The notes under the pieces: model-generated | Database searches by the model: none | Seen by the model: the letters and a program-made list of their open reading frames with translations, nothing else | Told to the model about the DNA's origin: nothing | Translations under genes and position numbers: made by a program | Shown here: one piece after another, positions 1,819 through 58,939 of the stretch | Layout: each line of letters starts with the position of its first letter | Position numbering within the stretch: the stretch's first letter is position 1 | Assembly: GCA_030765865.1 (NCBI GenBank) | Contig: JAVCDK010000035.1 | Location: forward strand, 291 to 64,290 | Source: Candidatus Celaenobacter antarcticus | GTDB lineage: Bacteria; Cloacimonadota; Cloacimonadia; JGIOTU-2 | Reading direction: 5' to 3' | Length of the DNA: 64,000 nt

Positions 1819-2808
1819 CTATGGGGGATTGGGCAGATCGGTGATCGCTCCCACATAAATCTTATCACCAGATAAATCGGTTTTACGAATGTACATGCAT
1901 TTTTTGATGAGCTCACGACGGAATCGATTCTTTACAAGGAACACTTCCCACACACTATCATTAGTTTTTAAACCATTCAACGCTTTCAAAAAGGGTTTAT
2001 GCCCGACTTCGTCAGCACATTCCAGGAGCTGTATCTGCGAGAGACTGTCTTCAAGAACGGGTGAAATCACTATATCTCCATTCGGACAAAATGCAAAAAC
2101 CGCCACATCTCTGTAGTTATATTGCGATGTAGGGTCAGCTATCTCCGCGAGTGCAGAATGCCCTTTTTTTTTGATGAGCTCTGCCGCGCCATCCACAATG
2201 ATCCTGATGAATTCCTGCTCTTCCTGCGGATAATTTATTCCACCGCCCACAAAGAATTCTTTGCCTTCAGGGGTAGTAACTTTAAAATGACATGAAGATT
2301 TCGGTACAGGATAGAATTTTCCTGGTTCCCACCATGAATAATGAACCCATGCGTGGGGATTGTTAGGGTCATCTAAAGCCTTCAATGTTAGTGCTGCGAT
2401 CTCTTTACCATTTTTATCCGTTACACTTATTAGGTTGGTGTTTTCAAGATTTTCCATGCCGCTATGAAAAATATTATTGCAATCCATATCGTAGATATAG
2501 AGGTAGTGATCCTTCGTAGTAAAAAGCTCACGATTGTTATGGAAGTAATCCAGACTCGCAATGCCGTCTCTTTCGAGAATTTGTGCTGCATCGTACACGA
2601 ATTTCACCAGTTTTTTTGTATCACGATATTTGTACATGTTCAGGTCGAGGTCTTCATATTTTTTGGAACAGCCGGTTGAGAAGAGTATGAGGAAAACAAG
2701 AATAATAATTGGTGACAGTTTCCGCGTATTCAGAAAAATCCTTCTCGGATTGTAATACAGGTTAAATCTATCGGACGATTTCATAGTTTGATTTGAAATA
2801 TAAAACAT
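1819..2808 (-). CDS. Cache-domain lipoprotein (two sCache-like modules)
   Basis: 329-aa ORF with a lipobox (LILFSTGC) and two repeated modules resembling extracellular cache sensor domains (HYLYIYDMDCNNIFH; VAVFAFCPNGDIVISP). The start may instead be Met9 at 2784. Confidence 0.55.
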   Translation of the reverse strand: MFYISNQTMKSSDRFNLYYNPRRIFLNTRKLSPIIILVFLILFSTGCSKKYEDLDLNMYKYRDTKKLVKFVYDAAQILERDGIASLDYFHNNRELFTTKDHYLYIYDMDCNNIFHSGMENLENTNLISVTDKNGKEIAALTLKALDDPNNPHAWVHYSWWEPGKFYPVPKSSCHFKVTTPEGKEFFVGGGINYPQEEQEFIRIIVDGAAELIKKKGHSALAEIADPTSQYNYRDVAVFAFCPNGDIVISPVLEDSLSQIQLLECADEVGHKPFLKALNGLKTNDSVWEVFLVKNRFRRELIKKCMYIRKTDLSGDKIYVGAITDLPNPP

Positions 2809-2815
2809 AAAATAG

Positions 2816-2848
2816 TGTCAAACTATTTATGATTATCTGTCTTTGAAT
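2816..2848. repeat. Degenerate remnant (copy E) of the nifS-selD upstream region
   Basis: tgtcaaactatttatga resembles tgtcaaattattatgaa of copy C. ctgtctttgaa is an 11-nt exact match to 7318-7328, and 10 of those nt (ctgtctttga) recur at 8175-8184. Confidence 0.3.
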
Positions 2849-2953
2849 TCAATTGGAGGATTTTTCTCATCGTTAACACCTGAGCTCAGCGACCCTAAGC
2901 AAGCCTTGAGTTTGTCAAAAAGCGAGTCGAGCGGGTCCGACTGCAGCGATAGG

Positions 2954-3436
2954 TTAGGTTGGTGTCCCCTTTGTCATCATATGCGCCGGCATCTGCACCG
3001 CAACTACCTGACCTCGTGCGCACACTTCCCCCTCAGCCGAGACCGTAGCACTCACCACCACCTTCCGACCCTTAACCTCCTTAACCCTCCCGCGGATCTC
3101 AAGAGGCACTCCAAGTGGCGTCGGACGCAAATACTCCACCTGCAATGACGCCGTGACGAAACGCAATGGTGGGTCAGTACCCATCTCACGTCCTTCTTTC
3201 CGGTATGACGCTGCCGAAGCCGTACCTGTGCAGTGGCAGTCGATTAACGAAGCAATCAAGCCGCCATAAACGTAACCGGGAATCGCAATGTGATATGGCT
3301 TAGGATGGAAGATGGCAACTGTCTCCTCCTCATCCCAATAGCTCTTGAGATGCAGACCGTGCTCATTGAGTCGACCGCAACCATAGCAATAGCTTAGTTC
3401 ATCCGGATAATAGTCCTGAAATGATTTCTTATTCAT
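2954..3436 (-). CDS. PaaI/hotdog-fold thioesterase with an N-terminal CxxC zinc-ribbon-like motif
   Basis: 160-aa ORF with CYGCGRLNEHGLHLKSY followed by a hotdog-type core (HIAIPGYVYGGLIASLIDCH). GC-rich: 37 of 60 nt in 3001-3060. Confidence 0.7.
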   Translation of the reverse strand: MNKKSFQDYYPDELSYCYGCGRLNEHGLHLKSYWDEEETVAIFHPKPYHIAIPGYVYGGLIASLIDCHCTGTASAASYRKEGREMGTDPPLRFVTASLQVEYLRPTPLGVPLEIRGRVKEVKGRKVVVSATVSAEGEVCARGQVVAVQMPAHMMTKGTPT

Positions 3437-3460
3437 ACGTCTATATTTTCAACGGACATC

Positions 3461-3526
3461 CTAACATATATTATACTGCTTAAAATATCATATACTGCGA
3501 AGTTGCACAGTATATAAGTACCTATC
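3461..3526. repeat. Copy A of the conserved 32-nt box plus imperfect palindrome
   Basis: ctaacatatattatactgcttaaaatatcata matches copy C (7219-7250) at 30 of 32 nt. It is followed by the 3' arm gcacagtatataag..cctatca. Confidence 0.6.
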
Positions 3527-3654
3527 ATAGAAGTGATCAATATAAATGTCCTTTATATATTTATATCCTGCTTCAGATAGAAGCTTTCTGTAAATACAAT
3601 GTCAAGAAATTCGAGATATTTCTTGCCTAATTAAGCAAGAAATATTATTTATAA

Positions 3655-3674
3655 TTTAAGCAGTATATGAGATT
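3655..3674. repeat. Isolated second copy (A2) of the palindrome 3' arm
   Basis: tttaagcagtatatgagatt matches the 3' arms at 5542-5560 and 7261-7279. No 5' arm lies next to it. Confidence 0.5.
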
Positions 3675-3795
3675 GTTTATGCAAGAAAAAAAATACTTGC
3701 GAAAGTGAAAGATCTTATCAGTAAGATGAATTATAGCAAGAGCACTATTAAACCGATGGCGTCTATCACGGCGTAATACAACACTTTTTATATTC

Positions 3796-4407
3796 TTACT
3801 TTACTACCCAGCAACCTTCTACTACCAATTTTCTTTTTTCAAATATCTTTCCGTTAAACTTATCACCAGATTTAATAGGACCTACGCCTTTTGGAGTTCC
3901 AGTCATTATTAAATCACCGTCCTCAAATGAAGGAAAACCGGCAACTTCATTTAATATTTCGCCTGGCTTATTCAGCATCAAATCACAGCCACCCTTTTGT
4001 ACCAAACTGCTATTAATATAAAGCTCCATATTCAAATCACTAATATTCCCTCTGAAAGTGACGAACTCACTAAATACCGCAGACTTATCAAAAGATTTTG
4101 CTCGTTCCCATGGCAGCCCCTTTGATCTCAAATTAGATTGAACTTCTCTCTTTGTAAGGTCTAACCCAAATCCCACACCTTTTAATTTATCAGAACTTAT
4201 TAGAAAGGAAATTTCACCTTCATAATGAATAACATCATTTTTATTAGAATAAATATTTTTTGATATGGATGAATTTGGCTTAATAAATATTATCGGTTGT
4301 TTTGGTACTTCATTATGAAGCTCTTCAATATGATCTACATAGTTTCTACCTATGCATACGATCTTAGATGGGTAAATATCTTTGCCGTCAAACTTAATTG
4401 AGTTCAT
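3796..4407 (-). CDS. Fumarylacetoacetate hydrolase (FAH) family protein
   Basis: Typical FAH-family sequence (KIVCIGRNYVDHIEE, IFIKPNSS, GDLIMTGTPKGVGPIKSGD). The start is taken at Met16 (MNSIKF, ATG at 4407) rather than 4452. Host-like low GC. Confidence 0.8.
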   Translation of the reverse strand: MNSIKFDGKDIYPSKIVCIGRNYVDHIEELHNEVPKQPIIFIKPNSSISKNIYSNKNDVIHYEGEISFLISSDKLKGVGFGLDLTKREVQSNLRSKGLPWERAKSFDKSAVFSEFVTFRGNISDLNMELYINSSLVQKGGCDLMLNKPGEILNEVAGFPSFEDGDLIMTGTPKGVGPIKSGDKFNGKIFEKRKLVVEGCWVVK

Positions 4408-4639
4408 TTTGTATTCCTCTTTATAGTTTCTTTTTGAAACAAAAAAACACAAAATGATGTCAAACTTTTAGTAGTTTGTAGTTTCAGCAACCAATTCTGG
4501 TATGAATTTTTTGAAAAGATAGGGTAATCTATAAAGATAATTGTAGGATTTTTTTGCTTGGGCGTACCGCTATCTTTTCTATCTTGATGGCTGGGCCCGT
4601 TTCTTGTTCTCTCCGCCGTCTATCTCTGCTGTCAACTTG

Positions 4640-5440
4640 TCACTCGGACAAGAAAGCATTGATGGTCATGAATACCGCCGCAGCCAAGGTGGTCAATGCA
4701 AAGATGGTCTTAAGTGTCTTGGGTTTGGTCTTCAGCGTCAACTTTCCGCCCAAGAAACTCCCAAGGGCTGCGACACAGGCCACAGGAATCGCCCAGCGAT
4801 AGTCAAAATGTCCGGCACTGGAATGACCAAAAAATCCCATTAATGCAGTTGCCGCCACCATCGCCGATGAAGTACCTACCGCCACGTGCATAGGGACACC
4901 GCAGAGCAGTACCATAAGGGGGACCTTGAACGATCCGCCGGAGATACCCACGGCACCGGCGGCGAGCCCCGTGACCGCCGTAATGGGAATCGCGAGCCAG
5001 AGATTGACAACATACTCCTCGTTCCCGAAGTTGCGATGCCAGAATCCGATACGGCTATGCTGTCCAATCGGTCGATTCCGCACCTTCAACAGCATGAGAA
5101 AGCCTGCCAAGGTCAGTAGTGCCGCTAAGAGGAACTTCAGAGCAACTCCGCTTGCCAGACCGGAGAAGTATCCCCCAACAAAAGCCATGATGTCGGTAGG
5201 AGGATCAATGACCAGTGCGAGCTTCCAGTCGACCATCTTTTGTTTGTGGAAAACGAACATCGCCGTCATGGCCGCGAACACCAGAATGAACTGACCGCTC
5301 GTCGCGGCTTCGTGCATTGGTTGCCCCGAAGCGACGAGCAACGGGACATAGAAATTTCCTCCGCCCCGTCCTGTCATTGCCATAATCACAGCTATTGCCA
5401 GAATGGCTATGGATGTAAGGATAATGCGTACCACATGCAA
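4640..5440 (-). CDS. TauE/SafE (DUF81) family anion-exporter-type membrane protein
   Basis: 266-aa polytopic ORF with the duplicated GGG..VP.L motif (GRGGGNFYVPLLV; GISGGSFKVPLMV). GC-rich: 35 of 60 nt in 4861-4920. The many overlapping ORFs in the track here are a GC artefact. Confidence 0.75.
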   Translation of the reverse strand: MHVVRIILTSIAILAIAVIMAMTGRGGGNFYVPLLVASGQPMHEAATSGQFILVFAAMTAMFVFHKQKMVDWKLALVIDPPTDIMAFVGGYFSGLASGVALKFLLAALLTLAGFLMLLKVRNRPIGQHSRIGFWHRNFGNEEYVVNLWLAIPITAVTGLAAGAVGISGGSFKVPLMVLLCGVPMHVAVGTSSAMVAATALMGFFGHSSAGHFDYRWAIPVACVAALGSFLGGKLTLKTKPKTLKTIFALTTLAAAVFMTINAFLSE

Positions 5441-5493
5441 TCCTTTGCGATGGACCTCGTTACTAGCTTTATGAAATCATCCCCTTCTATCGC

Positions 5494-5684
5494 CCAACAT
5501 ACATTATAATGCTTAAAATTTCATAAACTACTACATTGCATCAAGCAGTATATGAGACACCTATTACAGAAATAATTATTCATTAAAATCTTCCTCGCTT
5601 CGACATTATCATTCCTTTCAAATATTCGTTGTATAAATAGCAACTGTTGACACAAATAATACTCGCAAATTTTTGTCAAATATT
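5494..5684. repeat. Copy B of the nifS-selD upstream region (32-nt box, palindrome, TTGACA/TGTCAA inverted repeat)
   Basis: ccaacatacattataatgcttaaaatttcata matches C at 30 of 32 nt. atagcaactgttgacacaaataatactcgcaaatttttgtcaaatatt parallels 8218-8263. Confidence 0.7.
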
Positions 5685-5803
5685 ATGAAGCCAATTTATC
5701 TCGACTACCGAGTGTGCCCTTGTACGGAGTGCAGACAAAAAAAACAGTGGAAAAAGCTCGCAAGCAGTTAGCAGAACTTTTGCATGCAAATCCTGATGAG
5801 ATC
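5685..5803 (+). pseudogene. Displaced, diverged 5' fragment of a nifS-like gene
   Basis: atgaagccaatttatctcgactac (MKPIYLDY) aligns with 8264-8287. cgagtgtgcccttgtacggagtgcagacaaaaaaaacagtggaaaaagctcgcaagcagttagcagaacttttgcatgcaaatcctgatgagatc aligns with about 8362-8459. About 74 nt of the gene are missing in between. Homology stops at 5803, next to the hydrolase cassette. Confidence 0.7.
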
Positions 5804-5818
5804 AGGTGGATCGGATGG

Positions 5819-6616
5819 TTAACAATTGTTTAGAAAATTCAGGACACAATCAGTGAATGCCCTGGGATTTTCCATGTGTATCGAATGGGCTGCATTCTCA
5901 ATGAGAGAAAAACTTGCTCCCGGAATTGTTTGTAACAGCTTGGCACTTTCTTCTGGGGGAAACAGCAAGTCCTCTTTCCCGCAGATGATCATGGTCTCCG
6001 AAGTGATTGCAGGCAGCTCTTCCAGGCAGTTAAATCCTGCAATAGCCATGACTTGATTTCTAAATGCGGCTTTACTTTGCGGATAGGGATATTCGACTGC
6101 GAATTGAATGGCATCATTCACTATTTTCTCATTTTCAAAAAAACGATTGGAAAATATCCAGTAAAAAGTGTTTCTGAACCACAGTTTTAAGTCCATTTCC
6201 GATTCCAGATAAGAAACCCAATCAAGCAACAGAGCATTATTCCGTTCGGAATTGAATGCAGATGTTCCAGCGAGTATCAATTTGGAGATATTTTAAGGGT
6301 AGCGGATGGCACAATCCAGTGCCACGAATCCTCCCATTGAATGTCCAAGCATGTTGACGGATGACAATCCTAAATGCCTGACAAGCGAGATGCAATCATC
6401 TGTAATCTTCTGAATGCTTATATTAATATCCGATGGCTTCGTTCTGCCCACACCTCTGTTATCGGGAGTAATGACACGGTAATTCCGGGACAGGTCTTCC
6501 ATTATCGGCTGCCAACTCTGGGAGTCGCTGGCAAGACCGGCGATAAGCATTAGTGGCTCACCTTTCCCATGAATTTCGTAGTAGAGGTCAATGCCATTGA
6601 CTATTGTGCTCGGCAT
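5819..6616 (-). pseudogene. Alpha/beta-fold hydrolase interrupted by one in-frame TAA
   Basis: ORFs 6293..6616 (GHSMGG nucleophile elbow) and 5819..6280 (C-terminal part with the catalytic His region AAHSIHMENP) are in the same frame. They read ...DCAIRYP-TAA-NISKLILAGTS..., with the stop at 6295..6293. Confidence 0.75.
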
Positions 6617-6679
6617 ATTGCGATAATCTCCTATAATAAATTGCTAACGGTCAAGTTGATACAATTGTTAGGGCTTTTG

Positions 6680-7201
6680 TTATCTGCGGGAAAATACATC
6701 TAGCTCCCACTCTGCTATTGCTTTATTGCCAGCTAATTCTGTAGCTTTATTTACCAATATTTTATATGTGTCAACTGAATCCAGTTTAGTCCATGCAGGT
6801 GGATTGGATAATTTCATTTTTGAAATTATTATTCTGTCAAATGGGCAATGAGGTGGTGTTTTTACTAACCCTAAACACCATTGGTATTTTAAATAAAGAT
6901 TTACTATTTTTTGAACAATACCTAGCTTTATGCTGCGATTTTTTAGCACCTGCGAATGATTTGTATTTATCCAATTTTGAATTTCTATAAGATTGTTAAT
7001 ATGTTCATTAGATGTTACTGATGATTTTGTATATTTGCTTTTTACAAAAGCATTTATTTTATCTCTCACACTATTACGGAAATCAGATTTATTGGTGTCA
7101 GAGACATTGGCTGCATAAACTCCAGATCTTTGAAGACCACCACCAAACGTGAGAATCCATATTTCGTAATTTAGAAAATCAGATTTCTTTGTTCCCTTCA
7201 T
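6680..7201 (-). CDS. Hypothetical protein (173 aa), no family recognised
   Basis: Long ORF immediately downstream (on its own strand) of box copy C, with AAGGA 6 nt before the ATG. No motif I can name. Confidence 0.45.
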   Translation of the reverse strand: MKGTKKSDFLNYEIWILTFGGGLQRSGVYAANVSDTNKSDFRNSVRDKINAFVKSKYTKSSVTSNEHINNLIEIQNWINTNHSQVLKNRSIKLGIVQKIVNLYLKYQWCLGLVKTPPHCPFDRIIISKMKLSNPPAWTKLDSVDTYKILVNKATELAGNKAIAEWELDVFSRR

Positions 7202-7218
7202 TTTTATCCTTTATTGAT

Positions 7219-7425
7219 CTAACATACATTATACTGCTTAAAATTTCATATTCTGCGAGGTTAAGCAGAATATGAGATTCCTATTCAATAAGTAAAATTT
7301 ATTAAACTGTAATTTTCCTGTCTTTGAAATTAACAAATGTCATCTCCTTTGCTTAAATAGCAATTGTTGACAGAAATGTTAGCTCATATTTTTTGTCAAA
7401 TTATTATGAAACCTATCATACACAG
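7219..7425. repeat. Copy C of the nifS-selD upstream region, including the first ~11 nt of the CDS
   Basis: Contains the 32-nt box, an 8-bp hairpin ctgcttaa/ttaagcag, cctgtctttgaaat, and atagcaattgttgacagaaatgttagctcatattttttgtcaaattattatgaaacctat. It is nearly identical to 8174-8274. Confidence 0.8.
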
Positions 7426-7571
7426 TCCCAAATTTTTTTAGATTAATAGCACTTACAATTAAACTTAAAGAATATTATATATAATGGAAAAAAAATACAA
7501 TATTTTTCTTTTTAGATGTCAATTCTTAAATATGTAATATGACATTATTTATTATGTATAGTAATTTTTTC

Positions 7572-8036
7572 CTATCTATCAGATTGAATAAAAGTACCGA
7601 TTAAAGCACCAGTACTTCCAAAGATGAGTGGTCCCGCTAGAGAACCAATCAACAATTTAGTTTTAAGATCAAGGTGGAACTGGAACCCATTATCATCAGA
7701 ATCTTGAGGATCGACAAGTGCTAGTGTAACACCCAAAACTAATCCAATAACTACACCAACAAGTGCTCCTGTAAATGTGTTTCGTTTTTTGCCTTTCCAT
7801 AATTCAATTTTCTGAACATGTTGAACAGGAATAATAAATTTCTCTGAATGCATACTAATGAAGAGAGAATCAGATTGTATTTTATCAAATTTGCAATCAA
7901 TACGCTGAATGAAATATTCTGATGCGGTTAAACGAATACGATCATCCTGAGATAAACTGTCTAACTGTGCGAATAATATAGATTCTGTGAAAAGTAGAGA
8001 TACGAGAACGATGATTGTAATAGTTATTTTTTTCAT
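7572..8036 (-). CDS. Hypothetical secreted/membrane protein (154 aa) with a glycine-zipper-like segment
   Basis: N-terminal signal-like segment (ITITIIVLVSLLF) and a C-terminal Gly-rich hydrophobic stretch (GALVGVVIGLVLGVTLAL). Confidence 0.45.
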   Translation of the reverse strand: MKKITITIIVLVSLLFTESILFAQLDSLSQDDRIRLTASEYFIQRIDCKFDKIQSDSLFISMHSEKFIIPVQHVQKIELWKGKKRNTFTGALVGVVIGLVLGVTLALVDPQDSDDNGFQFHLDLKTKLLIGSLAGPLIFGSTGALIGTFIQSDR

Positions 8037-8074
8037 AGCCTTTATACCTCCTATGAATAAAGTTTCATACTAAG

Positions 8075-8263
8075 GATACATCATACTTCTTATAAAATCT
8101 TAGTCTGTTAAACTGTAATGTGAGGTAGTGTGAGGTCCCTGTCTAGTAAGTAAAATCAGTTAAACTGAAGTTTCCTGTCTTTGATATCTACATTTCTGAT
8201 CAATTTCTGTTATGAGATAGCAATATTGACAGAAATGTTAGCTCATAATTTTTGTCAATAATT
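8075..8263 (+). promoter_or_regulatory. Resident upstream region (copy D) of nifS-selD, shared with the divergent gene 7572..8036
   Basis: Homologous to copies C, B and A. Contains an internal ~52-bp duplication (gttaaactg..cctgtct occurs twice, at 8107-8144 and 8159-8180). Confidence 0.6.
8226..8258 (+). promoter_or_regulatory. Inverted repeat TTGACAGAAAT-N10-AATTTTTGTCAA, 5 nt upstream of the nifS-selD ATG (candidate operator or 5'-UTR hairpin)
   Basis: About 11-bp arms. Conserved in copy C (7367-7399) and copy B (5647-5679). A different hairpin occupies the equivalent place in copy A. Confidence 0.5.
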
Positions 8264-10462
8264 ATGAAACCTATATACCTCGACTATAATGCAACCACAC
8301 CTCTTGCGCCGGAAGTGGCAGACGCAATGAAGCCCTTCCTGGAAGAGTATTTCGGCAATCCTTCAAGTGCGCACTGGTATGGCGTGCAGACAAGAAAAGC
8401 AGTGGAAAAAGCACGCAGGCAGGTAGCAGAACTTATTAATGCAAACCCCGATGAGATCATTTTTACAAGCGGCGGCTCAGAATCCAATAACTTTGCAATA
8501 AAAGGCATTGCTTTTGCAAAGAGATCGCAGGGAAACCACATTATTACTTCATCTGTGGAACATCCTGCCGTTGTCGAAGTTTGCGAATACCTCAAGACAC
8601 AGGGATTTGAAATAACCTATCTTCCGGTTGATGAATATGGCATGGTCGATCCAGGTGATGTGGAAAAAGCGATCACTCCGCAGACAATACTTATCACAAT
8701 AATGCATGCAAATAATGAAGTTGGCACTATCCAGCCAATACGGGAAATTGCAGCAATTGCGCATAAGCATGATATCGTCATGCACACGGATGCTGCCCAA
8801 TCCACAGGGAAAATTCCTGCGCTGGTTGACGAATTGGGAGTTGACCTACTTTCTATTGCAGGGCATAAATTGTATGGACCGAAAGGGATCGGTGCGCTGT
8901 ATATTCGAAGAGGAGTGAAACTCCAAAAAATTATTCACGGCGCGGATCACGAGCAGAATTTACGAGCCGGTACGGAGAATATTCTTTGCGATGTCGGTCT
9001 GGGAAAAGCATGTGAAATTGCGGGTCAAAATTTGGAAAAAAATATGCAACACATGAAAGAAATGAGGGATCTGCTTCATAAGAAAATAGGGGACTCGGGA
9101 CTCGATTTCATATTGAACGGACATCCTGAAAAAAGGTTGCCGAACACACTCAGTCTTTCTTTCCGAAATGTGGAAGCGAATACAGTTCTTTCCGAACTTT
9201 CCGAAGTTGCAGCTTCAGCAGGTGCTGCCTGCCATTCCGATCAGATCGATGTATCGGCTGTACTGGAAGCAATGAATGTGCCTGTCGAATATGCAATGGG
9301 CACAATTCGGTTTTCTACTGGTAGGTTTACCACAAAGGATGATATAGAAAAAGCAGCGGATTATATCATAAAAGTTATCGGCAAATTCCAGGATAAAAAA
9401 GTAGAAGTATCTCATCAGAAAGATGCTGAGATCAAGCTCACACATTTTACTCACGGTATGGGGTGTGCCTGCAAGATAGAACTGGCATTACTAGAGGAGA
9501 TACTTAAAAAACTTCCCATACCTGACGATCCAAAAATTTTAGTAGGCACACAAACTGCTGACGATGCTGCCGTTTACCGGATCAATGATGAAACCGCATT
9601 GGTGGTTACTCTTGATTTTTTCACTCCAAATGCTGACGATCCTTATGAGTTCGGTGCAATCGCTGCTGCAAATGCATTAAGCGATGTTTACGCAATGGGT
9701 GCAACCCCTTTATTCGGACTGAACATTGTTGGATTTCCCTCAAATAGATTGCCTATGTCCGTGTTGGAAAAAATTCTGCAGGGAGCGCAGGATAAAGCTC
9801 AGGAAGCAGGCATTTTCGTGATCGGCGGACATACGATCGAGGATACAGAGCCCAAATATGGAATGGTAGTAGTCGGGCAAGTTCACCCGGAAAAGATCTG
9901 GAAGAATATCGGATTGCAAAAAGGAGATGTGCTTATCCTTACCAAACCGATCGGGACAGGCATTCTTTCAACTGCATTAAAAAGAGGTTTGCTCGACGAA
10001 ACGCAAAAAGATGTTTTGATTTCAACAATGACTAAATTGAATAAGAAAGCGGCAGAAATTCTACACAATTTCACAGTTCATGCCTGCACTGATGTGACGG
10101 GTTTCGGGCTTCTCGGGCATCTTATGGGAATGGTGCGGGGAAGCAAAGTAGCGGTTGAGATCATAGCTGACACTGTTCCCTTTATTGAAGGTGCTCTTGA
10201 ATTTGCAGCCGGGAATGTTATTCCTGGTGGAACACTCTCGAATATGAAGTATGTCGAAAATTTTGTTAAGTGGAGTTCGAGCATTTCACAGATCCAGAAA
10301 ATTATCCTGTGCGATGCTCAGACATCAGGAGGATTGCTGGTTTCAGTTCCGGAAGAAAGTGCACAAATTATTTTGAAGCAACTATATAAAGTCGGGATTC
10401 AAAAAGCAGAAATCATCGGAAAGATTATAAATAAAGATTCTCAGTTCATCAAAGTGACTTAA
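8264..10462 (+). CDS. selD: Fusion protein: NifS/IscS-like class V aminotransferase (cysteine desulfurase / selenocysteine lyase type) joined to selenophosphate synthetase SelD
   Basis: The N-terminal ~380 aa have MKPIYLDYNATTP, the PLP-Lys context SIAGHKLYGPKG and the active-site loop SAGAACHS. The C-terminal ~340 aa have HGMGCACKI (Cys-type SelD, TGC), DDAAVY and DFFTPNADDPYEFGAIAAANALSDVYAMG. ATG 8264 is preferred over TTG 8252. Confidence 0.85.
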   Translation: MKPIYLDYNATTPLAPEVADAMKPFLEEYFGNPSSAHWYGVQTRKAVEKARRQVAELINANPDEIIFTSGGSESNNFAIKGIAFAKRSQGNHIITSSVEHPAVVEVCEYLKTQGFEITYLPVDEYGMVDPGDVEKAITPQTILITIMHANNEVGTIQPIREIAAIAHKHDIVMHTDAAQSTGKIPALVDELGVDLLSIAGHKLYGPKGIGALYIRRGVKLQKIIHGADHEQNLRAGTENILCDVGLGKACEIAGQNLEKNMQHMKEMRDLLHKKIGDSGLDFILNGHPEKRLPNTLSLSFRNVEANTVLSELSEVAASAGAACHSDQIDVSAVLEAMNVPVEYAMGTIRFSTGRFTTKDDIEKAADYIIKVIGKFQDKKVEVSHQKDAEIKLTHFTHGMGCACKIELALLEEILKKLPIPDDPKILVGTQTADDAAVYRINDETALVVTLDFFTPNADDPYEFGAIAAANALSDVYAMGATPLFGLNIVGFPSNRLPMSVLEKILQGAQDKAQEAGIFVIGGHTIEDTEPKYGMVVVGQVHPEKIWKNIGLQKGDVLILTKPIGTGILSTALKRGLLDETQKDVLISTMTKLNKKAAEILHNFTVHACTDVTGFGLLGHLMGMVRGSKVAVEIIADTVPFIEGALEFAAGNVIPGGTLSNMKYVENFVKWSSSISQIQKIILCDAQTSGGLLVSVPEESAQIILKQLYKVGIQKAEIIGKIINKDSQFIKVT

Positions 10463-10752: not shown

Positions 10753-11790
10753 ATGAATAGTAAAAAATATATTACGAGAATTGTTGCATTAGCATTAATG
10801 CTCATAGCTCTTTCTACCATGTCACTTTCAGCAGAAATATTACTCTGGGATAATGACAATTATTCAACGATAAACGATCCCGAAGGCGCAGGATATGTCG
10901 GGTGTGAATACTCGCTTGAAAAAGCATTCAATAATATGAGTTTATCTTACACCACCTTAAGTTATCTGCCCACAAATCTGGACGATTATGACATGTTGTT
11001 CATTACACTCGGACACTGGTGCTTTGATTGAGGATCCACTCCTCCGGGCCAGGTTGGCTCAATCGAACAGCAGATGATTATCGATTTTATTACTGAAGGA
11101 AAATCAGTGTATATAGAAGGCACTGATGTTGCTTCGGGTTTGCAGGGAACGTCGCTTTTTTCCTACTTTGGAAATACTTTTAATGGCGAAGGTGACGATA
11201 TGAATGTACAAGATCTTGCCGGTGTACCGGGCACTTTTGCCGATCCTATTGTGGTTGATTATCAGTACTTTTCAGAATCTGATTACGGTGTGGATGAGCT
11301 TGGTGCAGCTTCTGCAGGAATATGTATTCAATCCCAGGATACAAAAGGTAGAGTTACTTATTGGGATGGTCCAGACGGTACATACAGAGCTATGATGAGT
11401 TCTATACTTTTTGGCTCTATAATCGATGGTTCTGGAATCAATAACAAAGCGTTTCTCCTGTCACGGTATTATTCATTCCTGAAAATCCTGCCTGTCAGTG
11501 TCGATCCACCAAATTCACCATCAAATGAAATCGTTCTGAAAAATTATCCTAATCCATTTTCAGCTTCTACTTTGATATCCTACTCAATCCCAACTTATCA
11601 CAATAATATCTCTCTTGAAATCTTTGATATCAAAGGAAGGAAAGTTAAGGAATTTTCCTCATTGCAACAGGATGGTACTATTATCTGGGATGGCTCTGAC
11701 CATTTCGGAAATAAAGTTTCTAATGGAATATATTTTTACAAATTCCAGGGAACGGATAGTGGCGTTCATAAAATGATATACATCAAGTAA
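10753..11790 (+). CDS. Secreted T9SS-tailed protein read through an in-frame TGA (11029-11031): candidate selenoprotein with a W-C-F-D-U motif; alternatively a pseudogene
   Basis: Track ORFs 10753..11031 and 11074..11790 are in the same frame, and the 42 nt between them contain no other stop. Features: strong SD (GGAGGT) before ATG 10753, a signal peptide, and the read ...FITLGHWCFD-TGA-GSTPPGQVGSIEQQMIIDF... The C-terminus has a Por-secretion-tail pattern (NYPNPFSASTLISY...GIYFYKF). Confidence 0.5.
11046..11060 (+). promoter_or_regulatory. SECIS-like hairpin GGGCC-AGGUU-GGCUC, starting 14 nt after the UGA
   Basis: 5-bp stem (one G-U pair) with a G/U-containing apical loop. The 42 nt after the TGA are 26/42 G+C in an AT-rich gene. 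Confidence 0.35.
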
Positions 11791-11989: not shown

Positions 11990-12475
11990 ATGATAGACAA
12001 AAATGCACTTAAGAAAAGTATTGATCGCATCTGCGATGAAACAGGTTTTCAGCTTTATGACTGGCAACTGAAGCGGAGAGGTAGCGCCCATAATCTTGTT
12101 ATATATATTACAAAACCGGAGGGTTTGTCCCTGTATGATTGCGAGGTTTATAGCAGAATGCTCGGTGATGAACTTGATATGCATGATGTTATCGGAACCC
12201 GATATTATCTTGAAGTGTCCTCCCCGGGATTAAGTCGCCTGCTTCTTACACAAGAGCATTATCTCGGAGCAGTTGACGAATTTGTGAAAATTACTTTTCT
12301 CAATGATGAACGTAATCACGAAACGATTCGTGGAAAAATCTCGAATGTAAATGGGCAGATGCTCACTCTCATAAGCGAAGACGACGAAGATAGATTGATC
12401 AATATATCCGATGTTCAAAAGGCAAAAACTGTATTTGTGTGGCCGAACGCATCATCAAAAACTAAAAAGGTATAG
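11990..12475 (+). CDS. rimP: Ribosome maturation factor RimP
   Basis: The sequence YYLEVSSPGLSRLL and the position before nusA. The start is taken at Met33 of the track ORF (ATG 11990). Confidence 0.8.
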   Translation: MIDKNALKKSIDRICDETGFQLYDWQLKRRGSAHNLVIYITKPEGLSLYDCEVYSRMLGDELDMHDVIGTRYYLEVSSPGLSRLLLTQEHYLGAVDEFVKITFLNDERNHETIRGKISNVNGQMLTLISEDDEDRLINISDVQKAKTVFVWPNASSKTKKV

Positions 12476-12483
12476 AGGTTATT

Positions 12484-13719
12484 ATGGCATTTAATTTGAT
12501 TTCTATTATTGAAGAATTTTCCAGACTGAAGCAGATCGACAGAGAAAAAATTGCTGAGATAATCAAAGAAAGCCTGGAATCCGCCCTTCAAAAAAAGTTG
12601 TCTGAAAAGACTGAACTTGCAGTTGAGATTAATTTTGATGAAAGTGAAGTGGTCGCAAAATTTGATGCTGTAGTTGTTGAGGAAACTACCGGTTTCCTCG
12701 ACGAAATAGTGCTTGAAGACGCCCATAAGATTAATCCTGAAGCCGAACTTGGTGATATTATACCCCTTGAAATGCTGGTGTCTGATTTCGGACGCAAGAC
12801 GATACAGTCTGCACGACAGGCAATAATAAATAGGTTCAGAGAATCCGAGACCGAAAAGGTCAAAGTGGACTATGAAAAGCAAAAAGGAGAGATTGTTTCC
12901 GGTGCGGTGAAAAAGGTAGAATATAATGGGTACATAATTGATATTGGATTTACCGACGCGCTTCTACCAACTGAAGAGCAGGTGGAAACAGAATTTTATA
13001 AAGCCAATGATTTCCTGAAAGCTTATGTGGCAAGTATTCGTCAGTCAAAAAAAGGTGTGCGCGTTATCCTTTCCAGAAAACGTCCCGAATTTATAATAAA
13101 ACTTTTCGAAAACGAGATACCAGAAATTGCAGATGGCATTGTAATGATCAAAAAAATTGTCCGTGAACCGGGTTTTAGAACAAAAGTTGCTGTAATAAGC
13201 AATGATGAGAATGTCGATCCCTATGGAAGCTGTATCGGTCCGAAAGGAATCCGAATAAGTGAGATCCGCAAAGAGCTTAACGGGGAGCAGGTTGATATTG
13301 CTCTATGGAGTGATAACCCTGAAGATTTTATACGAAATGCTGTTGGTCCCGAACTTGTGAAGCGTGTTTATCTCGCTGATAAAGGACGATTTGCCCAGAT
13401 CATTGTTAATGAAGATAATAAAAATATTGCGATTGGAAAAGGCGGTAAAAATATCAAGCTTGCTGCAAAACTGACCAATTACAAACTCGATGTTCTTCTT
13501 GAAGAAGAGTATGAAGAGATCGCAGCAAATGAGCGCCGTATTACAAGTCAAATCTTTGACCTTGACGGAGTCCATGAAAAAGTTGGTAAGATCCTTCATG
13601 AAGCCGGATACACTTCGGTGCAGGATATCCATCTTGCAACGGTGGAAGAGTTGACTCATATTGAAGGTGTTGGTGTAAAAACTGCCCAAAAGATCAAAGA
13701 ATCTGCAAAATATTTTTAA
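12484..13719 (+). CDS. nusA: Transcription termination/antitermination factor NusA
   Basis: S1 and KH regions (VSGAVKKVEYNGYIIDIG; CIGPKGIRISEIRKELNGEQVDI; IAIGKGGKNIKLAAKL) and conserved synteny. Confidence 0.95.
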   Translation: MAFNLISIIEEFSRLKQIDREKIAEIIKESLESALQKKLSEKTELAVEINFDESEVVAKFDAVVVEETTGFLDEIVLEDAHKINPEAELGDIIPLEMLVSDFGRKTIQSARQAIINRFRESETEKVKVDYEKQKGEIVSGAVKKVEYNGYIIDIGFTDALLPTEEQVETEFYKANDFLKAYVASIRQSKKGVRVILSRKRPEFIIKLFENEIPEIADGIVMIKKIVREPGFRTKVAVISNDENVDPYGSCIGPKGIRISEIRKELNGEQVDIALWSDNPEDFIRNAVGPELVKRVYLADKGRFAQIIVNEDNKNIAIGKGGKNIKLAAKLTNYKLDVLLEEEYEEIAANERRITSQIFDLDGVHEKVGKILHEAGYTSVQDIHLATVEELTHIEGVGVKTAQKIKESAKYF

Positions 13720-56417: not shown

Positions 56418-56500
56418 ATTAAAATAAGTTAATTTCATATAAAAAAATATTGTTATTATGCAGGAATTACCTAATGACAGAAACAAAAAGAGGATTTGTA

Positions 56501-58939
56501 ATGAAAAAGGGATTTTTAGTCTTATTACTTGTTTTTTATTCGATTTATCTTTATGGTTATCAGGCAGAAGATATATACCTAACAGGTTGGAAAACCTATA
56601 CCAACACCACTCATATTCACCAGATACTTTGCAAGGGAGACTCTGTCATAGCTGCAACATGGGGTGGGGTCAATATCTTCGATAAGACAAACTCAACTTT
56701 TTCAACATTGGTAAAAAGCGATGGTTTAGGTAAAAATGATGTGCGGTCGATCCATTATATCAACGATGTTAATGAATATTGGTTCGGTACATCTGTTGAA
56801 GGCATTTCACGTTATCAAGATGGCAAATTTCTTAAACCATATCAAGAGAATCAGGGAGTTGACTGTGATTATATTAATGATATAGATGATAATGACGATT
56901 TTATTTTTATATGTACAGATCAGGGGCTTACCATGTTCGAAAATTTGGAGGAAAGAATACAATTTATTAAAACTTTTAATGCTCCAAGATGGCTGTTCAA
57001 CAATTATGTGAACACAATCAATTTTGATGATTCAAATAGGATTTGGGTAGGCACGAACGAAGGAATTGACTATGCCGTTATAGACTATGACTCGATGCTG
57101 GTTGTAGATGGTTGGTGGAAACATATCAATAATACTACTCCAGGCTATCCTTTCGGGAATACTAGTATTACGGACATTGATTTTTACAATGGAAGAATTT
57201 ATTTTGGAACCGAAGAGGGATTTGGAATTGTTGATAACATTTATTCCGATTCCTTAGAATTTACAAAATATACAAATTATCTACCATCCCAAAAAGTATC
57301 TTCCATCAAAGCAGCGAACGATTCTATAGTATGGATCGGCTCAGGTATGTGGGATGAGACGAATCAAACCTATGATTACGCTAATGGTATAGCAAGATAC
57401 AATATTTTGGATCCCGGAGAATCTCAAATTTGGAATGAACAAGACTCGATATGCGATATGATATCCGACATTGATATCGATGATTCCGGCACTATATGGG
57501 TTAGTAGTTGGGGTGAAGATTTGTATTGTTTTAAAGATGAGATGTGGTATCACTATAAAAGGAATTGTATTAATTCAAATATAGTTGCTGAAATGATGTT
57601 AGATGATGATAATAATCTTTGGTGTGGCTTTAGTAGAATCAATCTTTCTCCGGCAAGTAAGAAAGGTGTATCTAAATTCGATGGAACAATCTGGACAAAT
57701 TACGATATAAGTAATTCAGGATTAGGAAATAATACTGTCTATTCTTTATGCCAGGACAATAATGGAAATATGTGGTTTGGTCATTGGGGGGGGAGTAACA
57801 ATATTTCAGTTCTAAATCCATCAAACAATGACTGGAAAATATTTAAAAATATCAATGAAGATTGGTTGTTGTGTCCGGCAATTTCGTTTCTGCTTTGTGA
57901 TGAGGACAATAATATATGGATAGGCAACTATGCTGCTGGACCGGGAGGTGTAACAATCTTAAAACCTGACAGCAGCTATGTTTATTTTGCACCGAATATG
58001 TTATATGAAAATGAGCATGCAGATATGCTAACTATGAAGAAAGTAGATGGTAAGATATGGTTCGGTTGTTACTACACAGGCATTCAATATTGGGATGGTC
58101 CGGGTTTCCCACAAAATGATAGTACACAATATTGGGATAGCTTCTCTGGTGCCGACGGTCTAAGTTGTTATAATTTCGAAGTGCAGGGTTCAGGTGACTA
58201 TGTGGACTATTTTTTTGCAGCATGTGTTGATGGATTATATATGTATGATTTTTATTGGCAGCAATGGTTCCGCTACACGAACGGGCTAGTTGAAGATGTT
58301 AAAATGTACCGTTGGAATGGCATCGAATGGGAAAATTACGATTATTACTGGTATGACGAAGAGGGCAATCCCGAATCGCGTATGGGTTCTGGAAAATCAA
58401 GTCAGGTTAATCAGGTGTATGTCGATCAACACGGTCGCAAGTGGATCGCTACTAATGGCGGCGGTATCTCCATGCTCGATGAAGATAACTACTACTTCAA
58501 AAATTTTACTACTGAAAATTCATCCCTTCCAAGTGATGTGGTGCTCTCTTTTGCTCATAATATTTATACAGGCGAGCTTTTTGTGGGAACTGCTGAAGGA
58601 ATGTGCACATTCAATATCGGAGCTCAGATTAATAACGGGCAGGGGACAGGCAGTATTGATGATGTGGTGATTTACCCAGATCCATTCAAGCCTGCTGAAC
58701 ATTCTTGTATCTATTTTGAGTCCAGACCTTATGCAAAACTTCCTACCGGTGAAAATATGCTGTATATCTACAATCTCGCTGGCGAATTGGTTGCAGAACT
58801 CGAAGAGTCAGATCATTTCAGATTTATCTGGGATGGTAAAAATAGTGGAAAGGATGTTGCGAGCGGTATATATTTCTTTGTTCTTTCTTCTAAATCTGAT
58901 AAGACTTATCTGAACGGAAAATTTGCAATAATCCGCTAA
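56501..58939 (+). CDS. Secreted beta-propeller (two-component-regulator-propeller-like repeats) protein with a T9SS C-terminal sorting domain
   Basis: Signal peptide from MKKGFLVLLLVF (ATG 56501). Recurrent W.GT..G. propeller-type repeats. The C-terminus reads IYPDPFKP...IWDGKNSGKDVASGIYFFVL. Confidence 0.7.
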   Translation: MKKGFLVLLLVFYSIYLYGYQAEDIYLTGWKTYTNTTHIHQILCKGDSVIAATWGGVNIFDKTNSTFSTLVKSDGLGKNDVRSIHYINDVNEYWFGTSVEGISRYQDGKFLKPYQENQGVDCDYINDIDDNDDFIFICTDQGLTMFENLEERIQFIKTFNAPRWLFNNYVNTINFDDSNRIWVGTNEGIDYAVIDYDSMLVVDGWWKHINNTTPGYPFGNTSITDIDFYNGRIYFGTEEGFGIVDNIYSDSLEFTKYTNYLPSQKVSSIKAANDSIVWIGSGMWDETNQTYDYANGIARYNILDPGESQIWNEQDSICDMISDIDIDDSGTIWVSSWGEDLYCFKDEMWYHYKRNCINSNIVAEMMLDDDNNLWCGFSRINLSPASKKGVSKFDGTIWTNYDISNSGLGNNTVYSLCQDNNGNMWFGHWGGSNNISVLNPSNNDWKIFKNINEDWLLCPAISFLLCDEDNNIWIGNYAAGPGGVTILKPDSSYVYFAPNMLYENEHADMLTMKKVDGKIWFGCYYTGIQYWDGPGFPQNDSTQYWDSFSGADGLSCYNFEVQGSGDYVDYFFAACVDGLYMYDFYWQQWFRYTNGLVEDVKMYRWNGIEWENYDYYWYDEEGNPESRMGSGKSSQVNQVYVDQHGRKWIATNGGGISMLDEDNYYFKNFTTENSSLPSDVVLSFAHNIYTGELFVGTAEGMCTFNIGAQINNGQGTGSIDDVVIYPDPFKPAEHSCIYFESRPYAKLPTGENMLYIYNLAGELVAELEESDHFRFIWDGKNSGKDVASGIYFFVLSSKSDKTYLNGKFAIIR

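Follow-up and report, generated by a model that had tools for sequence, protein, structure and literature searches.

In a Candidatus Cloacimonadota bacterium, the DNA directly upstream of nifS-selD in the window (the whole 64,000-nt stretch analyzed here) very probably represents a sedentary chromosomal integron whose integrase has been lost. We interpret its leftward ORFs as gene cassettes, with 5' ends at core sites (G|TTRRRY) joined either to an attI box or to the attC of the preceding cassette; nifS-selD is the conserved anchor of the site. The features are collected in Table 1, and related loci are given by L numbers.

TABLE 1 Features of the nifS-selD upstream region (window coordinates)
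Feature	Position	Strand	Description
Segment E/U	2780..2865	.	Homologue of the FAH upstream region, itself a degenerate nifS-upstream remnant
Thioesterase cassette 3' region	2871..2959	-	attC-like, degenerate; from sequence and fold, pairing poor
4HBT thioesterase cassette ORF	2954..3436	-	PF03061; 160 aa; 56% GC
Copy A	3437..3678	+	Putative attI box 3461-3518, spacer, Pint-type palindromes; aligned with attI-intI spacers of L114 and L118
intI stub	3679..3752	+	Start codon and about 23 codons of integron integrase gene, frameshifted in poly-A run
FAH (fumarylacetoacetate-hydrolase family) gene and upstream region U	3796..4564	-	Gene 3796-4407, U 4408-4564; PF01557
TauE/SafE permease cassette ORF	4640..5440	-	PF01925; 55% GC
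Copy B	5480..5804	+	Degenerate attI box 5494-5551, spacer, native nifS upstream part, nifS-selD 5' pseudogene fragment (ATG 5685)
Alpha/beta-hydrolase cassette	5808..6648	-	Broken into ORFs 5819-6280 and 6293-6616; Pfam
173-aa orphan cassette	6642..7223	-	ORF 6680-7201; core GTTAGAT (7217-7223) to 45-nt attC remnant
Copy C	7203..7421	+	Intact attI box 7219-7276, spacer, nifS upstream part, nifS-selD +1..+11/15 (ATG 7406)
154-aa orphan membrane-protein cassette	7426..8036	-	ORF 7572-8036; 146-nt AT-rich 3' region
Copy D	8037..8410	+	Active upstream region with degenerate attI box, and first ~150 nt of nifS-selD
nifS-selD fusion gene	8264..10462	+	Cysteine desulfurase and selenophosphate synthetase; PF00266, PF00586, PF02769

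Repeat copies upstream of nifS-selD

Self-BLASTN of the window confirmed the series of repeats that an earlier note had described here. Copy D (8131-8278) and copy C (7273-7421) are 78% identical (E=4e-25), C (7221-7416) and B (5496-5695) are 72% identical (E=3e-21), and copy A (3461-3525) matches C (7219-7284) at 83% (E=4e-12). The right part of copy B (5711-5804) is 84% identical to the nifS-selD CDS at 8366-8459 (E=6e-23). Elsewhere in the window (58 kb), self-BLASTN found no additional repeat copies. A profile built from the window copies (the T profile, where T stands for the repeat copies, or attI-nifS' modules) recovered all four in one orientation, at 3441-3635, 5480-5688, 7203-7409, and 8063-8267, and the start codon of a leftward ORF adjoins each copy, as had been noted.

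Copies B, C, and D comprise about 230 nt of sequence upstream of nifS-selD together with 11 to 196 nt of the CDS start, with E values of 1e-21 to 1e-25. Each is a chimera in which the attI box, together with the ~100 nt of attI-intI spacer that follow it, is joined to the native ~75-nt upstream region of nifS-selD, the coding sequence following this chimeric part. The two reaches into the CDS that had been proposed are both real: copy C retains ATGAAACCTAT at 7406-7416, the first 11 nt of the CDS, and in alignments copy B retains nifS-selD +1..+27 and +103..+196, about 120 nt, with 75 nt internally deleted. Copy A has only its left ~135 nt in common with B to D. The same array is found in ten independent ENA and JGI contigs encoding identical NifS-SelD, which rules out an assembly artefact.

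The attI box and the integrase remnant

The left end of each copy carries a box of about 50 nt (YAAC|AYAYATTATACTGCTTAAAAT.TCATA..CTGC....TTAAGCAG.ATA) that we identify as a putative attI site. The box of copy C forms a 15-8-15 hairpin at 7242-7279. The hairpin is conserved (z = -3.2 and -3.6, about -3.4), and the alignment of C with the copies A, L012, and L014 contains a compensatory T:A to A:T change.

Copy A appears to be the original integron platform, attI-Pint-intI, with the spacer continuing into a truncated intI. Its Pint-type palindromes, CAAGAAAT-N7-ATTTCTTG and ATATTTCTTGCCTAA/TTAAGCAAGAAATAT, lie at about 3603-3645 in the inverted-repeat listing. Window positions 3619-3746, which span Pint and the 23 codons, match L118 254-383 at 87.7% (E=3.5e-41), and the stub peptide KKILAKVKDLISKMNYSKSTIK matches the IntI N terminus at 64% over 22 aa (tblastn). 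The remaining ~930 nt of intI are deleted up to the FAH stop. Because the right part of copy A is an intI remnant and does not continue into nifS-selD, copy A is not a displaced 5' region of the target gene.

Full-length integrases are present in relatives. Matches to the integron integrase model TIGR02249 (cutoff, 265) score 460 bits in L106/L110 (a Ca. Celaenobacter polaris MAG) and 437 bits in L062/L118. The order in L118 is attI box, intI(+), FAH(-), a 378-aa ORF(-), and nifS-selD(+), within a total span of at most 3.9 kb; full-length intI is likewise followed by FAH(-) in L062. L114 and L118 carry the same box between the leftward sequence and an intact intI, which is located ~170 nt downstream of it, and the T profile matches both (L114 112-219, E=3.7e-14; L118, E=1.5e-15). 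The intact gene occupies the same place as the window stub, and other cassettes occupy the same points in relatives with intact IntI or the same attI. Integron integrases are also annotated by NCBI in Cloacimonadota MAGs; our literature search found no paper describing Cloacimonadota integrons. The earlier statements that no integrase is visible and that the mechanism is unexplained are superseded by the stub and by a box and cassette ends that point to a largely integron-type mechanism.

Cassettes and their boundaries

The Pfam assignments agree with the earlier annotation of the ORFs as a 4HBT thioesterase, an FAA hydrolase, TauE, a split alpha/beta hydrolase, and two orphans. The 5' end of the hydrolase cassette, CTAAC|, is identical in three contexts: next to the 173-aa orphan in the window, to a canonical attC in L052, and to the attI box in L080. 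An 810-nt insertion located exactly at the box-edge site CCTAAC|ATATATT is present in L052 and absent from L055. It consists of one ORF and a 64-nt attC whose R'' is ATCTAAC and whose R' is GTCAGAT; with its bulged stem, this site takes the fold of an attC. The L106 clade has five different plus-strand cassettes, each ending in an attC joined at G|TTAGGCAGTATAGG of T. All distinct full-length T copy types have YAAC| on the left edge except the degenerate D (for the L052 insertion, GAC|).

Within the window, no attC site passes even a lenient scan and the cassette 3' ends are degenerate; the case for an integron in this genome is therefore built on the intI stub, attI homology, the cassette 5' cores, and the relatives. 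The attC scanner was nonspecific, giving a similar match density in conserved flanks, and the attC evidence is therefore restricted to individually inspected sites.

The thioesterase cassette starts, in ORF orientation, with GTTAGGA (3459-3465), and its 3' region has an R'' (ACCTAAC) overlapping the stop codon and an R'-like GTTAACG. The same cassette in L012 and L055 shares only the first ~36 nt past the stop; in L012 it sits at another array position, with 91% identity. FAH is present in 13 related loci at variable array positions, and homology of the FAH unit ends at about 4553-4564 in L012, L052, and L071. Segment E/U, upstream of a Cache lipoprotein gene, has direct repeats with window 4444-4469 and 4528-4553 (repeat listing), and 75 nt of it (2780-2854) are 79% identical to L012 1940-2015 (BLASTN, E=4e-10). 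It contains what had been described as a short remnant of copy C; the 11-mer shared with C is real, but the homology of 2780-2854 is to the FAH upstream region and not directly to C.

In ORF orientation the first bases of the TauE cassette are GTTGGGC, at the left boundary of copy B; the cassette is missing from this position in L052 and L071. The hydrolase, unbroken in L052, L014, and L069 (265-266 aa), has its 5' boundary at G|TTAGCA (6642-6648), and no attC was found for this cassette, whose 3' tail is only 14 nt. The attC remnant of the 173-aa orphan (AGATAAC...GTTAGCA, 6642-6684) has lost its folding; in L052 this slot instead holds a 299-aa ORF, which has a canonical 75-nt attC. The 3' region of the 154-aa cassette has a 90-nt hairpin and no AAC/GTT cores, and the cassette occurs together with D only in L038 and L071.

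Turnover at the nifS-selD left flank

About 25 related Cloacimonadota loci have a conserved right flank of nifS-selD (rimP-nusA-infB) and a left flank with differing cassettes in differing order, a comparison that supports an insertion hotspot. The variation extends even to the near relative L071, which is 96% identical over C, the 154-aa cassette, D, and nifS-selD (96.3% at the nifS-selD start) and has three other ORFs in place of the window's TauE, B, hydrolase, and 173-aa orphan. Cassettes of the relatives include SIR2_2, GNAT, M78+DUF4411, a nitroreductase, an EEP nuclease, and unknowns.

The newest event can be followed at copies C and D. Copy C shares 94% identity with the upstream region that is active in the sister lineage L049/L052 and only 72% with D, which supports its being a recently displaced former active copy; copy B has its nearest active counterpart upstream of nifS in L011/L069 (84%). 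The window nifS-selD is 96-100% identical to that of L049 from about +150 on, 82-88% in +1..+147, and about 70% upstream, giving a mosaic breakpoint relative to L049/L052 at about +148..+200, and copy D is at most 75% identical to every other T copy outside its own lineage. Copy D was evidently brought in from a divergent lineage together with about 150 nt of the nifS-selD start. The serial insertion and displacement first proposed stands for the hotspot and for this newest event, not for copy A. All ten same-species contigs have the same single array, which gives no sign of current mobility in the species.

That single array, the 72-84% identity between copies, as for old paralogues, and the passive decay seen as internal deletions would also fit an old local tandem duplication of a gene-plus-intergenic unit, followed by divergence and gene replacement with no dedicated mobility mechanism. 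We consider this extremely improbable and already contradicted by the present data: C is nearer another lineage's active copy than its neighbor D, nifS-selD is a mosaic, even lineages that are 96% identical do not have the same cassettes in the same order, the GC profile spans 30 to 56% across the cassettes, and the insertion polymorphism at the box is precise.

Origin of the attI-nifS' modules

For the multiplication of the modules, the reading that we tentatively prefer, at somewhat short of an even chance, is that array segments spanning the attI-nifS junction were exchanged between lineages. The exchange would probably proceed by homologous recombination anchored in the conserved nifS-selD 5' end and in T copies, and for this an unequal double crossover would suffice, as would the Campbell-type integration of a circle. 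After each event the previous attI-nifS' copy would be stranded upstream and then eroded by deletions. L118/L107 have nifS' duplications on both sides of a cassette without any attI box, which points to an IntI-independent recombination route. On their right, at +11/15, +37, +42, +53, +104/106, and +196, the T copies end without G|TT junctions; these ends lie outside IntI chemistry and count against the integron model, which does not explain them. The same junctions also fall near the 3' ends of ORFs at a higher rate than random illegitimate joining would give, a feature that the recombination model does not predict.

A distinctly less probable alternative is that the integrase itself moved the copies, as deltaattI-type cassettes, with IntI excising and reinserting an ORF plus T via the box as recombination site. 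A long stretch of the attI region, reaching from the crossover point into nifS-selD, would take the place of the cassette's own attC or come after it. The left edge of every T copy indeed lies exactly at the crossover point, with a variable rightward extent; the hydrolase and FAH cassettes lack their own attC and have a T copy on the 3' side; the box hairpin is conserved, with its compensatory change; and the same architecture, with 14-244 nt retained, occurs in class 1 and 2 integrons and is functional with IntI1 (PMC12901181). However, the imported block reaches about 150 nt into functional nifS-selD, which box insertion cannot yield, and neither G|TT nor GWT junctions occur at the nifS' ends of the T copies. 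Moreover, the nifS' duplications in L118 are box-free, and D is the newest copy, yet its box is degenerate.

Integrative elements such as phage 21 and e14 at the icd 3' end, and islands at tRNA genes, bring a replacement end of their target gene. Tandem accretion of small elements at a fixed core in the nifS-selD 5' end (near +196), each supplying a replacement promoter and 5' end, with the recombinases since lost, would resemble those cases in that the new gene end comes with the incoming DNA and the old copy is left as a direct repeat in a tandem age series (D active, C intact, B eroded). It would also agree with +196 being the furthest reach of any displaced copy and with the mosaic breakpoint at +148..+200. 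We regard it as very improbable: intI aside, no unit contains a recombinase or a remnant of one, the units are single ORFs of 0.5-1 kb, and there is no fixed core, the displaced copies having many different end positions and only one at +196. The cassette ends are integron cores, and the locus has attI and an integron integrase; viral contigs gave no match to the box and T patterns (bar one to a shorter T pattern); and, unlike icd, the window gene has its 5' end replaced and not its 3' end.

Relation to known systems

One comparable system, a sedentary chromosomal integron with a decayed integrase, is that of Xanthomonas, where the integron is fixed downstream of ilvD (bioRxiv 10.1101/2025.06.18.660453). 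As there, a whole clade keeps the platform next to a housekeeping gene, at a single conserved point of the chromosome; some lineages retain an intact intI and others have an inactivated one; and the arrays, which differ from lineage to lineage, consist mostly of cassettes of unknown function and are stable where intI is dead. Unlike in Xanthomonas, the attI region is fused to the nifS-selD start and acts as its upstream region, the module of attI and gene start is repeated within the array, and the phylum is Cloacimonadota.

The closest known analogue of the attI-nifS' module appears to be the deltaattI-type cassette of class 1 and class 2 mobile integrons, in which partial or complete attI copies, of origin stated as unknown, replace attC in the array (PMC12901181; also treated in Partridge et al. 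2009, as cited there). Both kinds of copy stop at the crossover point and vary in length upstream. The window copies, however, are longer (245-426 nt as against 14-244 nt), cross the whole attI-proximal spacer into the adjacent gene's coding sequence, and differ from each other by 15-30%, being traced to different donor lineages. The window array also resembles a CALIN, a cluster of attC sites without an integron integrase, in having no functional intI nearby, but to count as a CALIN an array must contain two or more attC sites that can be detected (Cury et al. 2016, PMC4889954), and those of the window are too degenerate for detection. Since an intI stub and attI are present, "decayed complete integron" is the better name.

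Under the lineage exchange that we prefer, each stranded copy would remain available as an attI-like site and would probably also supply the cassette to its left with an outward promoter. The array in this genome would now be frozen, or would turn over by homologous recombination only, unless IntI is encoded elsewhere.

Repeats and gene units left of nifS-selD

The region upstream of nifS-selD is very probably an integron, a known kind of element. A complete integron comprises an integrase gene (intI, encoding a tyrosine recombinase of the IntI subfamily), an adjoining attI site that takes up cassettes, mostly single-ORF cassettes in one orientation that are bounded by GTTRRRY and carry an attC site at the 3' end, and a Pc promoter directed into the cassettes. 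The attC site, R''-L''...L'-R', is an imperfect palindrome that folds as a bulged hairpin at the cassette 3' end. Below, L-numbers denote related or same-species loci or contigs compared with the window, T is the repeat unit (and profile) built from the four copies A to D, the box is the ~50-nt left end of every T, and a slash in a sequence marks a joining point.

Self-comparison of positions 2700-8600 against the whole window showed direct repeats of significant similarity, a point that the earlier note had left to alignment: D and C are 78% identical over 152 nt (E=4e-25), C and B 72% over 207 nt (E=3e-21), and A and C 83% over 66 nt (E=4e-12). Copy B also matches the nifS-selD coding sequence (84% over 94 nt, E=6e-23), and no further similar repeats were found in the rest of the 64-kb window. 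A search with the T profile placed the copies in one orientation (see the table), and every copy adjoins the start of a leftward ORF, as had been claimed. The window cassettes are all leftward and encode a 4HBT thioesterase, an FAA-hydrolase-family protein (FAH), TauE, a split alpha/beta hydrolase, and two orphans; the gene to the right of the array is a NifS-SelD fusion. From one unit to the next, GC content swings between 30% and 56% (background, ~40%).

The same array is present in ten independent metagenome contigs encoding identical NifS-SelD, so the structure is no assembly artefact. There is no cassette polymorphism among these ten contigs, and array polymorphism appears only in relatives differing by about 4% or more. 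One of the ten, L003, is ~218 bases longer than the rest in the stretch that separates nifS-selD from the following gene. In the window and in all same-species contigs, two ORFs make up the broken alpha/beta-hydrolase cassette; the gene is intact, with 265 to 266 aa, in L052, L014, and L069, and the split version is therefore a pseudogene in a frozen array.

The repeats do not belong to any known RNA family, as the whole window gave no Rfam match at the gathering threshold. When viral contigs were searched, the box pattern had no match and the T pattern had one (L037), and these searches found no evidence for a phage origin of the repeats.

Positions of features in the window and in compared loci (rc, reverse complement; the four T copies share one orientation)
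Locus	Positions	Feature
Window	466-2808	Genes for a xanthine/uracil permease and a Cache lipoprotein, to the left of the array
Window	3441-3635	T copy at copy A (profile search)
Window	3679-3752	Frameshifted 23-codon intI stub
Window	5480-5688	T copy at copy B (profile search)
Window	5647-5684	Palindrome TTGACAGAAAT-N11-ATTTTTGTCAA
Window	5819-6616	Alpha/beta-hydrolase cassette
Window	7203-7409	T copy at copy C (profile search)
Window	7368-7405	Palindrome TTGACAGAAAT-N11-ATTTTTGTCAA
Window	8063-8267	T copy at copy D (profile search)
Window	8226-8263	Palindrome TTGACAGAAAT-N11-ATTTTTGTCAA, directly before the nifS-selD start
Window	11074-11790	Porin-secretion-tail (T9SS-type) protein
Window	22000-56500	Long rightward cluster: polysaccharide export, flippase, O-antigen-ligase-like, and glycosyltransferase genes (capsule or EPS locus)
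Window	56450-58939	Porin-secretion-tail (T9SS-type) protein
L003	about 12200-12700	~218 extra bases after nifS-selD
L012	800-1305	Region in which the DUF4954 gene adjoins FAH
L012	8223-9871	Peptidase_M78 and DUF4411 pair, rightward
L014	6186-6239	attC
L015	111-1759	Peptidase_M78 and DUF4411 pair, rightward
L047	7373-7503	attC
L089 (rc)	3998-5450	Peptidase_M78 and DUF4411 pair
L106	210-350	attC
L106	2585-2653	attC
L106 (rc)	2585-2660	Plus-strand cassette clade, junction of cassette and T
L110	4996-5886	Second, non-integron tyrosine recombinase
L118	3200-3239	Palindrome TTGACAGAAAT-N11-ATTTTTGTCAA, directly before the nifS-selD start

The box and the integrase

The box lies ~170 nt upstream of an intact intI in L114 and L118, and from this position we read it as an attI site. 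The T profile matches the attI-intI spacers of the same two loci over profile positions 9-135 (E about 1e-14 to 1e-15), a match from which the left two-thirds of T are taken to be that spacer. Copy A connects the box with an intI stub, and one nucleotide of the box is the joining point for many different cassettes. A 15-8-15 palindrome in the box had suggested an XerC/D dif-like or loxP-like site, a reading that was dropped because the box is found upstream of intI. As a 50-nt attC (R'' ATCTAAC, R' GTTAAGC), the box would have internal arms that are direct rather than inverted repeats, with R'' and R' unpaired; attI fits better.

Leftward cassettes join the box at YAAC/. Rightward cassettes join it at its opposite end: in the clade of L106, L047, L050, L057, and L101, five different plus-strand cassettes with terminal attC, upstream of nifS-selD, are all joined to T at G/TTAGGCAGTATAGG (G/TTAGGC). 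In L110, plus-strand ORFs with attC stand directly upstream of intI. The putative attI box apparently serves cassettes in either orientation, at both ends.

A tyrosine recombinase scoring 460 and 437 bits with the integron-integrase model TIGR02249, well over its cut-off of 265, adjoins the array in two relative loci, one of them from a Candidatus Celaenobacter polaris MAG. L118, a 3.9-kb contig with the order leftward ORF, box, intI, FAH(-), 378-aa ORF(-), and nifS-selD, is a compact intact integron platform. The earlier note had seen no integrase and left the mechanism unexplained; in fact the window holds a stub of intI, and the relatives carry the gene intact. Copy A aligns over its full length with the attI-intI spacer of L114 and L118 and continues into intI. 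The match between window 3619-3746 and L118 254-383 (87.7% identity, E=3.5e-41) takes in the Pint-type region with its palindromes and the opening 23 codons of intI; one base has been lost in a poly-A run, and the remaining ~930 nt of intI are deleted as far as the stop codon of FAH, the gene found downstream of intact intI in L118 and L062. No IntI was found elsewhere in the 64-kb window, either by tblastn at E <= 1e-5 or by eye, and tblastn at a relaxed threshold recovered the short stub only. The view of the copies as repeats of the nifS-selD upstream region is therefore right for B, C, and D, which carry that region, and not for A, which is the attI-intI spacer.

IntI homologues 81% identical to those of L062 and L118 occur in L114, L116, and L117, where the contexts end at the integrase and do not adjoin nifS-selD, so the platform does not keep one position throughout the phylum. 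L110, from a Ca. Celaenobacter polaris MAG, has a second recombinase of 296 aa (Phage_integrase and MrpR_C_cat) among plus-strand genes 4 kb upstream of intI.

Cassette boundaries

In cassette orientation, the window cassettes start with GTTAGGA, GTTGGGC, GTTAGCA, and GTTAGAT. Compared with L055, L052 has an 810-nt insertion precisely at CCTAAC/ATATATT, the left edge of the box, consisting of one ORF (EEP nuclease) and a 64-nt attC that folds as such (R'' ATCTAAC, a bulged stem, and an R' that reads GTCAGAT once the cassette is circular). The hydrolase cassette has its 5' end fixed to one nucleotide (CTAAC/ on the plus strand, G/TTAGCA in cassette orientation) next to three different neighbors, namely, the 173-aa orphan in the window, a canonical 75-nt attC in L052, and the attI box in L080. 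Judged by their sequences, these boundaries are of the integron type.

Clear attC sites are present in relatives, among them L052 (cassettes of the 240-aa and 299-aa ORFs), L047, L106, L012 (after a 307-aa ORF), and L014. In the window, only badly decayed remnants are left and no attC is detectable with confidence: the thioesterase cassette retains no more than R'' and about 30 nt, the site of the 173-aa orphan is a non-folding remnant of 45 nt, and hardly any 3' tail follows the hydrolase and FAH. Our attC scanner was home-made (RYYYAAC...GTTRRRY with constrained folding) and found as many matches in conserved flanks as in arrays; it was therefore dropped as a statistic, and only individually inspected sites are used here. 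A sigma-70 consensus promoter scan gave fewer matches than shuffled sequences, the consensus being uninformative for this phylum.

A variable locus in relatives

The closest genomes are Candidatus Cloacimonadota MAGs. Their loci, together with those recovered from metagenomes by a motif conserved where nifS-selD begins, gave about 28 loci that were oriented and mapped. On the right-hand side of nifS-selD, the genes keep their order (rimP, nusA, infB ...); on the other side, neither content nor order is constant. The left side holds mostly leftward ORFs interspersed with T copies of uniform orientation. FAH (13 loci), the hydrolase, and the thioesterase recur at different positions, and many other units are unique; the relatives' units encode, among others, SIR2_2, trypsin-like, M78+DUF4411, GNAT, nitroreductase, and EEP nuclease proteins and proteins with no Pfam match. 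L071 is 96% identical to the window across C, the 154-aa cassette, D, and nifS-selD and has three other ORFs in place of TauE, B, the hydrolase, and the 173-aa orphan. In L052 and L055, the nifS-selD body is nearly identical to that of the window, and two slots hold different cassettes.

In L012 and L015, a Peptidase_M78 (ImmA/IrrE-like) and DUF4411 pair adjoins nifS-selD upstream and replaces everything beyond -14, including the usual upstream palindrome; in L089, the same pair follows a T remnant, and the locus ends before nifS-selD. The permease and Cache genes left of the array are missing in L012 and found in L082, with the Cache gene also in L086, and may be part of the variable region.

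Chimeric copies and their multiplication

Copies B, C, and D are three-part chimeras of the attI box with ~100 nt of attI-intI spacer, the ~75-nt native nifS-selD upstream region, and 11 to 196 nt of nifS-selD coding start (nifS'). The native region contains the palindrome TTGACA-N21-TGTCAA and stands alone before nifS-selD in L118. The palindrome listed in the table is kept in every lineage, also where the attI part is missing, and a related one, CAAGAAAT-N7-ATTTCTTG, precedes intI in copy A, L114, and L118; intI and nifS-selD may share these palindromes as an operator.

B, C, and D form an age series, in which D is active with a degenerate box, C is intact, and B is eroded, with an internal deletion. 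Copy C matches the active copy of the sister lineage L049/L052 at 94% identity and D at only 72%. The window nifS-selD is 96 to 100% identical to that of L049 from about +150 on and 82 to 88% identical in +1..+147, where the window is the outlier among relatives. From these identities and this mosaic we conclude that the 154-aa cassette entered from a divergent lineage in one block with D and the nifS-selD start (~150 nt), stranding C, and that the right-hand crossover of this newest import was inside nifS-selD. The proposal that insertion displaces an older 5' copy is thus supported for the newest event.

An integrative element with gene-end replacement (a site-specific island) was rejected, as no unit holds a recombinase and there is no fixed core, the nifS-selD junctions varying from +11 to +196. 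Another explanation is that IntI would move ORF+T units as deltaattI-type cassettes. In a cassette of that type, the 3' recombination site is part of an attI, stops at the crossover point, and is a substrate for IntI. The architecture fits, in that B, C, and the T copies of relatives stop at the crossover and reach 245 to 426 nt upstream, and deltaattI-type cassettes work in class 1 and 2 integrons (PMC12901181). The right (nifS') ends of the T copies are not G/TT junctions and show no consistent microhomology, and in L118 and L107 a duplicated nifS-selD -40..+25 flanks a cassette without any attI box. The missing G/TT right ends and the box-free duplication favor homologous recombination as the means by which T multiplied, a reading we hold tentatively, at somewhat less than an even chance. 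Such recombination would use the conserved 5' end of nifS-selD and T copies as anchors, by unequal double crossover with donor arrays or by Campbell-type integration of looped-out circles, and deletion would afterwards erode the stranded copies.

A wider scheme strikes us as rather unlikely: the attI-promoter region would have been recruited to stand upstream of an essential-type housekeeping gene, and attI-nifS' modules would serve as portable homology handles by which lineages gain, lose, or swap whole cassette blocks by homologous recombination after integrase decay. If true, the integron would still be exchanging cassettes without its integrase.

Discussion

Cloacimonadota is an uncultured phylum abundant in anaerobic digesters and anoxic waters. 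Our literature search found no published description of Cloacimonadota integrons; NCBI labels integron integrases in Cloacimonadota MAGs. What had been a puzzling repeat pattern becomes a recognizable system, and integron biology is extended to this phylum. The closest analogue of the whole system is the Xanthomonas chromosomal integron, which lies beside ilvD and has had its intI repeatedly inactivated (bioRxiv 10.1101/2025.06.18.660453). For the repeats, it is the deltaattI-type cassette, a likeness that within the window is confined to B and C, since A is the original attI and D the active one. A CALIN has at least two attC sites and no intI within about 4 kb (PMC4889954); the window likewise lacks a functional intI, yet its array is no clean CALIN, because no attC is detectable with confidence while attI and an intI stub are present. 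The unusual features are the fusion of attI to the start of a housekeeping gene, the repetition of this module in the array, and the apparent use of both box ends.

L118 and the window provide a natural series from an intact platform to an integrase stub. The long attI-derived repeats inside a chromosomal array bear on the origin of deltaattI sites, which has been stated as unknown (PMC12901181), and the copies, with attI, spacer, and neighboring gene start, are long enough for tracing donors and breakpoints. Judging from our home-made attC scans rather than from IntegronFinder, annotation tools based on attC and intI probably miss this array. The locus suggests that homologous recombination anchored in a conserved neighbor gene can sustain cassette turnover after integrase loss.
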